A stretch of 13,774 nucleotides of DNA from positions 1 to 13,774 of IMG/VR virus record IMGVR_UViG_2778261448_000011, one strand, 5' to 3'. Shown here one piece after another: positions 6,674 to 7,203 of the stretch. This stretch comes from a virus (taxonomy: Duplodnaviria > Heunggongvirae > Uroviricota > Caudoviricetes). The translations under genes and the position numbers were made by a program. Numbering within the stretch: the first letter of the stretch is position 1; each line of letters opens with the position of its first letter. The notes under the pieces were generated by a model. That model was given only the letters and a program-made list of their open reading frames with translations, did no database searches and was not told where the DNA came from.

Positions 6674-6810
6674 CCATTAATCACCAGATGCTTCGTGCTG
6701 CACAGAACAAAGCAGTAATAGCCCGATTTATTGGTGATTCAAAAATGTGGCTTGAAGCAAATAAAGCGATGAAATCAGCTATCAACCTTCCGTGGTATCG
6801 CAGGAAATGA
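6658..6810 (+). CDS. kil: Kil-like small protein (50 aa)
   Basis: ATG 6658 with RBS ggagg (6649-6653); overlaps the cIII-like 3' end as kil does in lambda; motif ARFIGDSKMW recalls lambda Kil FIGDEKM (from memory, uncertain). Not in the ORF track. Confidence 0.4.
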   Translation: MRNEIAINHQMLRAAQNKAVIARFIGDSKMWLEANKAMKSAINLPWYRRK

Positions 6811-6891
6811 GTTTTACAGATAACTGGTCAGACGAAGAATTCATTCGTCAGATGAACAAAATGCTCAATCAGCACAAAGAACAGGAGAAAG

Positions 6892-7203
6892 ATGATGATT
6901 CTGACTCTGAATGATAAGCGTGAAATATCGCAAATAATCGCAAGTTTTACTGATGAAGATTACGAGCGAATCAACAGTGAAGTTGATCGCCTCTGCAAAC
7001 GTTGCGACCCAATAAGCGAAATGCTTCGCTCATATAAACCAGATGAACACACTAAGGACGCTATCGACTGGCTGGAAGATGATGACTGTAACTATCAGGA
7101 AAAAGCCGCTGAATGGTTCTGGGATGCAATAACCGAAAGAGTTAAGGCTGAATATGCCTTCGCAATATTCAAACGCAGACACATTTTTGGAGAATCAGCA
7201 TGA
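6892..7203 (+). CDS. Hypothetical acidic protein (103 aa) in the gam/abc slot upstream of recT
   Basis: RBS aggag (6883-6887) before ATG 6892; stop overlaps the recT start (ATGA at 7200-7203); no similarity to lambda Gam seen. Confidence 0.55.
   Translation: MMILTLNDKREISQIIASFTDEDYERINSEVDRLCKRCDPISEMLRSYKPDEHTKDAIDWLEDDDCNYQEKAAEWFWDAITERVKAEYAFAIFKRRHIFGESA

Follow-up and report, generated by a model that had tools for sequence, protein, structure and literature searches.

What does a small acidic protein do when its gene sits where lambda carries gam? The question is raised by a stretch of viral DNA of 13,774 nucleotides (record IMGVR_UViG_2778261448_000011, positions 1 to 13,774; the whole stretch is hereafter the window), which represents the early part of a prophage that is lambdoid or P22-like (Lederbergvirus-type). 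Its leftward operon, transcribed from pL, runs along the + strand of the window, and the nearest sequenced phages, Kapi1, HK140, mEpX1, Gally and Louie, are 96-99% identical to it in DNA. Between kil and recT lies the gene for an acidic protein of 102 amino acids (aa), which we call X, preceded by an open reading frame (ORF) for an acidic peptide of 35 aa, the micro-ORF. A sequence-only reading of the window had put X in the Gam position and proposed a host-nuclease inhibitor of unknown type, with no detectable resemblance to Gam. Our analysis supports the position and the putative role, and corrects the rest, as X shares a collinear motif and a predicted fold with Gam. It is best understood as a Gam-fold anti-RecBCD protein of a third sequence type, beside Gam and GamL. 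It is very probably a true, highly diverged homologue of the Gam fold, and we regard it as a rather likely candidate for a RecBCD inhibitor.

X is a real, conserved gene. Two tandem ATG codons stand at its beginning, at 6892 (103 aa, the start taken in the sequence-only reading, whose positions for X and the micro-ORF and whose description of both products as acidic we could confirm) and at 6895 (102 aa). The latter is the likelier start, since every full-length homologue begins with a single Met, and a GGAG lies 8-11 nucleotides upstream of the start. The product has an isoelectric point (pI) of 4.65 and a net charge of -9.3, with 24 acidic (Asp and Glu) against 15 basic (Lys and Arg) residues. 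Neither Pfam nor NCBIfam gave a match to X; the PHROG family phrog_3486 ("unknown function") matches it from end to end (1e-58). A word-indexed search with X returned 27 clusters, every one labelled "hypothetical", and a profile search run exhaustively over 1.84 billion representatives returned 54 proteins of the X family at E<=1e-3, counted as representatives at 50% clustering, nearly all of them about 100 aa long. A tblastn search with two distant members added Erwinia phage phiEt88 and nothing else, and a profile scan of genome contigs gave one locus. In an alignment of 37 sequences, with identities down to 24%, both length and motifs are conserved (consensus MxLT..D..EI..II, D.E.I..EVE.L, NP, PD..T..A...L...D...QE and WD....RV..EYA..IF...H...E.A). 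The module at 6807-7203 is present, at a coverage of at least 80%, in 265 of 5,426 complete Escherichia coli genomes (about 5%). X is called hypothetical in the annotations of these 265 genomes by the Prokaryotic Genome Annotation Pipeline, in PHROGs and in every phage record examined, and our literature searches found no paper on the family.

The gene content of related phages shows what else can occupy this place. Phage Dewey has the same cIII-kil genes upstream and, downstream, a 97%-identical RecT and gp157; there, an 80-aa ORF and a true lambda Gam (PF06064, 1.5e-50) replace the micro-ORF and X. In phi80, gamL, annotated as "gam-like host nuclease inhibitor, toxic without Mog", lies directly before a RecT gene whose product (Rec) is 59% identical to that of the window, and exo follows. 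The gene orders of Dewey and phi80 therefore show that the place before orthologous RecT genes is taken by Gam, GamL or X. In the window, the early-left recombination module begins with X, after kil, in the order cIII-kil-(micro-ORF)-X-recT, and X opens the recombination module across genera, in Cronobacter, Erwinia, Pantoea and Enterobacter. The order X-RecT-exonuclease, which parallels gam-bet-exo, is found in Cronobacter ENT47670 (48% identity in X), in Erwinia Midgardsormr38 (38%) and in a JGI contig (76%), while X-RecT-gp157 is found in Enterobacter (52%), in Pantoea (28%) and in two metagenomic loci. In 80 IMG/VR loci, micro-ORF, X, RecT and gp157 follow one another in this constant order wherever the contig is long enough, with lambda-type cIII-kil or P22-type c3 upstream.

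Is the likeness to Gam visible in the protein itself? A first AlphaFold2 prediction, made with five close sequences, was poor (best predicted local distance difference test score, pLDDT, 73; the others 45-53) and the model was set aside. With the 37-sequence alignment, the five models reached pLDDT values of 89.7-90.7, the best having a predicted template modelling score of 0.77. The model consists of five helices (residues 5-16, 20-34, 39-46, 53-63 and 65-97) and presents the all-alpha fold of GamS. When it was compared by Foldseek with the full Protein Data Bank (PDB), template modelling (TM) scores above 0.5 were obtained for four GamS chains only (TM 0.53-0.69, with a root-mean-square deviation of 2.6-2.7 Å for the crystal chains and a probability of about 0.7), the other targets scoring 0.2-0.3. 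A structure comparison with Gam and Abc2 had been suggested along with the sequence-only reading; it gave Gam as the best fold match and no fold match to Abc2.

Charge and size point in the same direction. The GamS dimer sits in RecBCD's DNA-binding site, where its acidic side chains imitate the phosphates of a duplex, and one subunit plugs the RecB channel for the 3' single strand with its N-terminal helix (Wilkinson et al. 2016, PMC5218532). X is likewise a small, strongly acidic protein, with the charge of a DNA mimic, and Dewey GamS (98 aa, pI 4.63, net charge -9.3) matches it in both respects. If X works as GamS does, it would form a dimer, dock on RecBCD and inhibit it.

At the sequence level, the signal centres on a short segment. 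BLASTP, in a single pairwise comparison of X with Dewey Gam, paired residues 53-75 of X (TKDAIDWLEDDDCNYQEKAAEWF) with residues 101-123 of Gam (SKNAISKAFDDDVEFQERAAEFI), with 11 identities in 23 positions and an E-value of 1e-4. An hhalign comparison of the X and Gam family profiles aligned the same 25 columns (P 1.2e-3). Under relaxed conditions the two proteins are collinear from end to end, and the conserved Pro that closes the N-terminal helical region is paired. The extended alignment also pairs the DDDxx(Y/F)QE motif, and neither family has a more strongly conserved block. In Gam this block, FDDDVEFQE, stands at the start of the last helix, with F66, D67, D68, D69, V70, F72, Q73 and E74 invariant; in the X family, D..(Y/F)Q(E/D) is the best-conserved block, and the sequences that face each other are LEDDDCNYQEKAAE in X and FDDDVEFQERAAE in Gam. 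The X profile gives 12 Gam sequences scores of 9.6-15.2 bits, which 2-6 of 20,000 composition-matched shuffles reach; in the reverse test, Gam against X, the best X members alone stood out. A word-indexed search with the X-family profile at E<=1 returned 49 proteins, unnamed or "hypothetical", none of them bridging to Gam, and a sequence search of the PDB with the 37-sequence profile gave a designed repeat protein as its best match (E 0.015).

Several results weigh against so close a kinship with Gam, or against a shared function. The Pfam hidden Markov model (HMM) for Gam, PF06064, matches neither X (E<=1) nor any of the 37 aligned members (E<=10), and X therefore lies outside the Gam family by sequence criteria; PHROGs likewise place it in phrog_3486 and not in the Gam family phrog_259. 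The hhalign probability is only about 20%, the sequence signal being limited to about 25 residues. The Foldseek search of the PDB gave the X model no significant E-value (about 3), and that of BFVD returned one unnamed 107-aa relative, Gam not being among the matches. The N-terminal segment of X is modelled as two helices with a short break between them (residues 5-16 and 20-34) and not as one long helix. Lastly, the module already has, in the product of its gp157 gene, a 'MuGam-like' protein that is taken elsewhere as the anti-RecBCD function. Set against lambda Gam (GamS; PF06064, phrog_259; PDB 2UUZ, 2UV1 and 5MBV), X is about 15% identical overall, its last helix is about nine residues longer, its predicted N-terminal region has two helices, and it is without an N-terminal extension of the GamL type.

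How does X stand with respect to the other known inhibitors? In what is the most thorough survey of lambdoid recombination modules published so far, Zheng, Casjens, Davidson, Amundsen and Smith (Genome Res 2025, PMC12315714) examined the Rec modules of 325 lambdoid phages. They sort the anti-RecBCD genes into four types, namely Gam, GamL, Abc2 and MuGam, and describe Gam and GamL as different in sequence and similar in predicted fold. The GamL of phi80 and Lula (phrog_1050) is an acidic protein of 93 aa (pI 4.70) encoded directly upstream of a RecT-type annealase. Whereas GamL retains the N-terminal MNAYLTYDRIE of Gam, X retains its C-terminal DDDxxFQE motif, and the two belong to separate PHROG families. 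The BLASTP match between X and phi80 GamL has an E-value of 0.1 and is not collinear, and X has no match to phrog_1050, which GamL itself matches at 2.7e-43; we therefore rejected X as a GamL, there being no detectable sequence similarity.

The Abc2 and Abc1 proteins of P22 are, like X, small proteins of the early-left recombination module in lambdoid and P22-like phages, and the Abc pair modulates RecBCD. Unlike a Gam-type block of the DNA site, Abc2 binds RecC and changes the response to Chi. Relative to the annealase gene, the abc genes are downstream and X is upstream; the order 'abc before erf' given for P22 in the sequence-only reading has to be reversed, as in SPN9CC (c3, micro-ORF, arf-like, erf, abc1, abc2) both abc genes follow erf in the direction of transcription. 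X has no sequence or fold match to Abc1 or Abc2 in Pfam, in PHROGs or by structure comparison, and on these grounds, together with its place on the opposite side of the annealase, its identification with either was rejected. The Mu Gam and Sipho_Gp157 proteins guard DNA ends from RecBCD, and one of them is the gp157 product, encoded two genes after X in the same module, but their fold is unrelated to that of X: they are Ku-like binders of DNA ends, not DNA mimics bound to the enzyme.

Could X have kept the Gam fold and taken another target? X would then act on SbcCD, for instance, or serve as a decoy for a defence system, and gp157 would handle RecBCD by binding DNA ends. The extreme divergence of X from Gam, with no HMM match, would fit this alternative, as would the kink in the predicted N-terminal helix, whose equivalent in Gam is the plug of the RecB channel, and PMC5218532 mentions that Gam interacts with SbcCD. 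In addition, X is nearly always accompanied in E. coli loci by a gp157/MuGam-like protein, next to which a second RecBCD blocker looks redundant. However, Gam and gp157 co-occur in Dewey, and GamL and MuGam in HK639 (PMC12315714). Gam-type and MuGam-type proteins can therefore coexist, and redundancy is no argument. Furthermore, the X modules of SEN22, ENT47670, Midgardsormr38 and the loci L090 and L100 are without gp157, and X is their sole inhibitor candidate; the position, size and charge of X also match those of Gam. We consider this alternative unlikely. There is a bolder variant, which also strikes us as improbable, where X is a third branch of the Gam superfamily that has kept the fold and changed its business end, the kinked N-terminal helix. 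It might then dock on RecBCD in another way, or it might target another end-processing or defence nuclease, in two layers with the gp157 end-binder and maybe also with the acidic micro-peptide.

A second alternative takes X for an accessory factor of recombination, a partner or loader of RecT or of the exonuclease with a role like that of P22 Arf for Erf, and not for an inhibitor. Across genera, X is closely coupled to the first recombination gene through a start/stop overlap, and RecT follows most X members, as would be expected of such a factor. But the 97%-identical RecT of Dewey works without X, with Gam in its place, and what follows X is not always RecT. In Salmonella phage SEN22, an instance of module mobility whose match to the window is exactly 6807-7203, the gene after X encodes a RecE-like PD-(D/E)XK nuclease and not RecT; one Erwinia genome (24% identity in X) has the order X-RecE-like-RecT; and an unrelated 107-aa protein is encoded between X and RecT in locus L101. 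X therefore has no constant partner. The fold match, moreover, is to an inhibitor and to no known recombination mediator, and we hold an accessory role to be quite improbable. That X is a non-functional or chance frame, its likeness to Gam being a coincidence among small helical proteins, is effectively refuted, even though spurious structural matches are common for small all-helical models and the Foldseek E-values are poor.

The most economical reading remains that X does the job of Gam for RecT-type and some RecE-type modules. X, small, acidic and all-helical, would be an early product of the pL operon, encoded just ahead of the phage RecT. It would shield linear phage DNA and rolling-circle tails against degradation, and the DNA ends would be left to the phage's own RecT pathway.

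The published survey bears on this reading in two places. It counts HK140 as 'MuGam', its gp157-type gene being taken as its anti-RecBCD function, and its Table 1 gives the SEN22 type no anti-RecBCD gene and nevertheless 0/0 Chi sites, as in phages that encode an inhibitor. Both carry X (98% identity in HK140, 94% in SEN22), and the X family appears to have been missed in the main text and Table 1 of that study (PMC12315714). According to the same source, lambdoid phages with a RecBCD inhibitor are mostly without Chi; the window is consistent with this, as the Chi site (GCTGGTGG) occurs on neither strand of its whole 13.8 kb.

Does the micro-ORF belong with X? The sequence-only reading had it precede X as a possible acidic peptide. 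The peptide (pI 4.27) is indeed conserved at the protein level, but no specific link to X emerged. In 94 phage records, among them those of HK97 (gp42.1), HK022 (p38), Sf6 and Stx phages, its N-terminal 21-28 residues (MSFTDNWSDEEFIRQM...) follow kil or c3 immediately, and the gene downstream varies. The core W[ST]D[ED]xF[IVA]R.M is kept in diverged loci while the DNA changes, and the ratio of nonsynonymous to synonymous polymorphism (pN/pS) is mostly 0.25-0.75 over 16 codons. Judging from its conservation, the micro-ORF is probably a real, independent small gene of the HK97 gp42.1 / HK022 p38 type, and its 3' end is probably remodelled by whatever gene comes next. An obligatory partnership with X was rejected, since Erwinia and Pantoea loci have X with no micro-ORF before it, and phages without X have the micro-ORF. 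P22 Arf (phrog_2445) is, like the micro-ORF, a tiny ORF just upstream of recombination genes; an identification with Arf was rejected too, as the match to phrog_2445 has an E-value of 0.062 and the SPN9CC micro-ORF precedes a separate arf-like gene. Members of the micro-ORF family were also seen at positions 2501-2600 of locus L096 and 3855-4025 of locus L003, and some RefSeq records call members of phrog_2123 'recombinase', without evident basis. In one E. coli protein of 69 aa (P0025), the N-terminus of the micro-ORF is joined in frame to the last 43 residues of X. This natural deletion allele, which has lost the N-terminal 60% of X, seems to stem from a deletion between the two GATGATGA (Asp-Asp-Asp) stretches near 6893 and 7078.

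The features of the window are collected in Table 1. The flanking genes that the sequence-only reading had called cIII-like, Kil-like and single-strand annealing all match the corresponding Pfam families. The genes around X form a chain of translational coupling. The kil stop and the micro-ORF start overlap in an ATGA, as do the X stop and the recT start (7200-7203), and the last 20 or so nucleotides of the micro-ORF lie within X, whose Shine-Dalgarno sequence the micro-ORF includes. For cIII, a good Shine-Dalgarno sequence precedes the ATG at 6539, the mechanical ORF start being 6488. No Rfam family matched the window, promoter-like sites within 5800-8700 were at chance level with no excess, and no terminator-like site was found on the + strand from cIII to gp157. 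An RNA element, an internal promoter or a terminator in the region was therefore rejected.

Table 1. Annotated genes of the window, in the order of the pL operon
Feature	Coordinates	Strand	Match or remark
cI	3029-3742		listed first in the pL operon order
N-like antiterminator	5069-5476		phrog_271
several small genes without assigned function			between the N-like antiterminator and cIII
cIII	6539-6673	+	Pfam cIII 5.3e-28
kil	6658-6810	+	Pfam Lambda_Kil 1.7e-20; phrog_2055 1.2e-35; upstream edge of the slot
micro-ORF, 35-aa acidic peptide	6807-6914	+	phrog_17766 5e-16; phrog_2123 3.5e-10
X, 102-aa acidic protein, first gene of the recombination module	6895-7203	+	phrog_3486 1e-58
recT, single-strand annealing protein	7200-8111	+	Pfam RecT 3.8e-32; phrog_148 4.7e-92
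gp157 (Sipho_Gp157 / 'Mu Gam-like end protection')	8089-8577	+	Pfam Sipho_Gp157 1e-36; phrog_253 2e-53
104-aa gene	8589-8903		between the gp157 gene and later genes
remaining genes, as far as xis and int	12508-13774		

Among the neighbouring genes, gp157 owes the label 'Mu Gam-like end protection' to PHROGs, and its match to Pfam Phage_Mu_Gam is below threshold (E 0.008). Its mechanical TTG start overlaps recT by 23 nucleotides, and annotated starts differ (146-162 aa). The gene that follows encodes a basic protein of 104 aa, labelled in Gally as 'Anti-RecBCD protein 1, similar to P22 Abc1'. BLASTP gave no alignment between it and the abc1 product of the P22-like phage SPN9CC; in PHROGs it falls with D5-like transcriptional regulators (phrog_323 and phrog_11492), and it has a weak winged-helix match in Pfam. 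The name Abc1 seems to lack support. In Louie, recT and gp157 are separated by a gene for an HNH endonuclease (L006, 2940-3407), the module being otherwise identical; this gene is an insertion resembling a mobile element.

Further from X, two conserved pL genes upstream of cIII, at 5985-6455 and 5485-5850, belong to phrog_8967 (138-156 aa) and phrog_3054 (121 aa, hydrophobic), respectively, and their presence varies among otherwise identical loci. The phrog_3054 product is probably a membrane protein. On the - strand, a protein of 315 aa with a repetitive, low-complexity linker rich in His and Ala is encoded at 1080-2027, upstream of an ORF for a DnaB-like helicase (1-1083, - strand), and is presumably a replication protein.

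X thus adds a new sequence family and extends known biology, without a new principle. If X is a Gam-type inhibitor, the classifications of the SEN22 and HK140 types in the main text and Table 1 of the published survey (PMC12315714) would change, and with them the link inferred there between the density of Chi sites and a missing inhibitor. X would also be a candidate tool for recombineering and cell-free expression in enterobacteria, and a candidate trigger for defence systems that guard RecBCD. It would provide a natural Gam of diverged sequence, by which the variation open to a DNA mimic that still fits RecBCD could be compared, and Gam-like inhibition would be more general among RecT-type modules.
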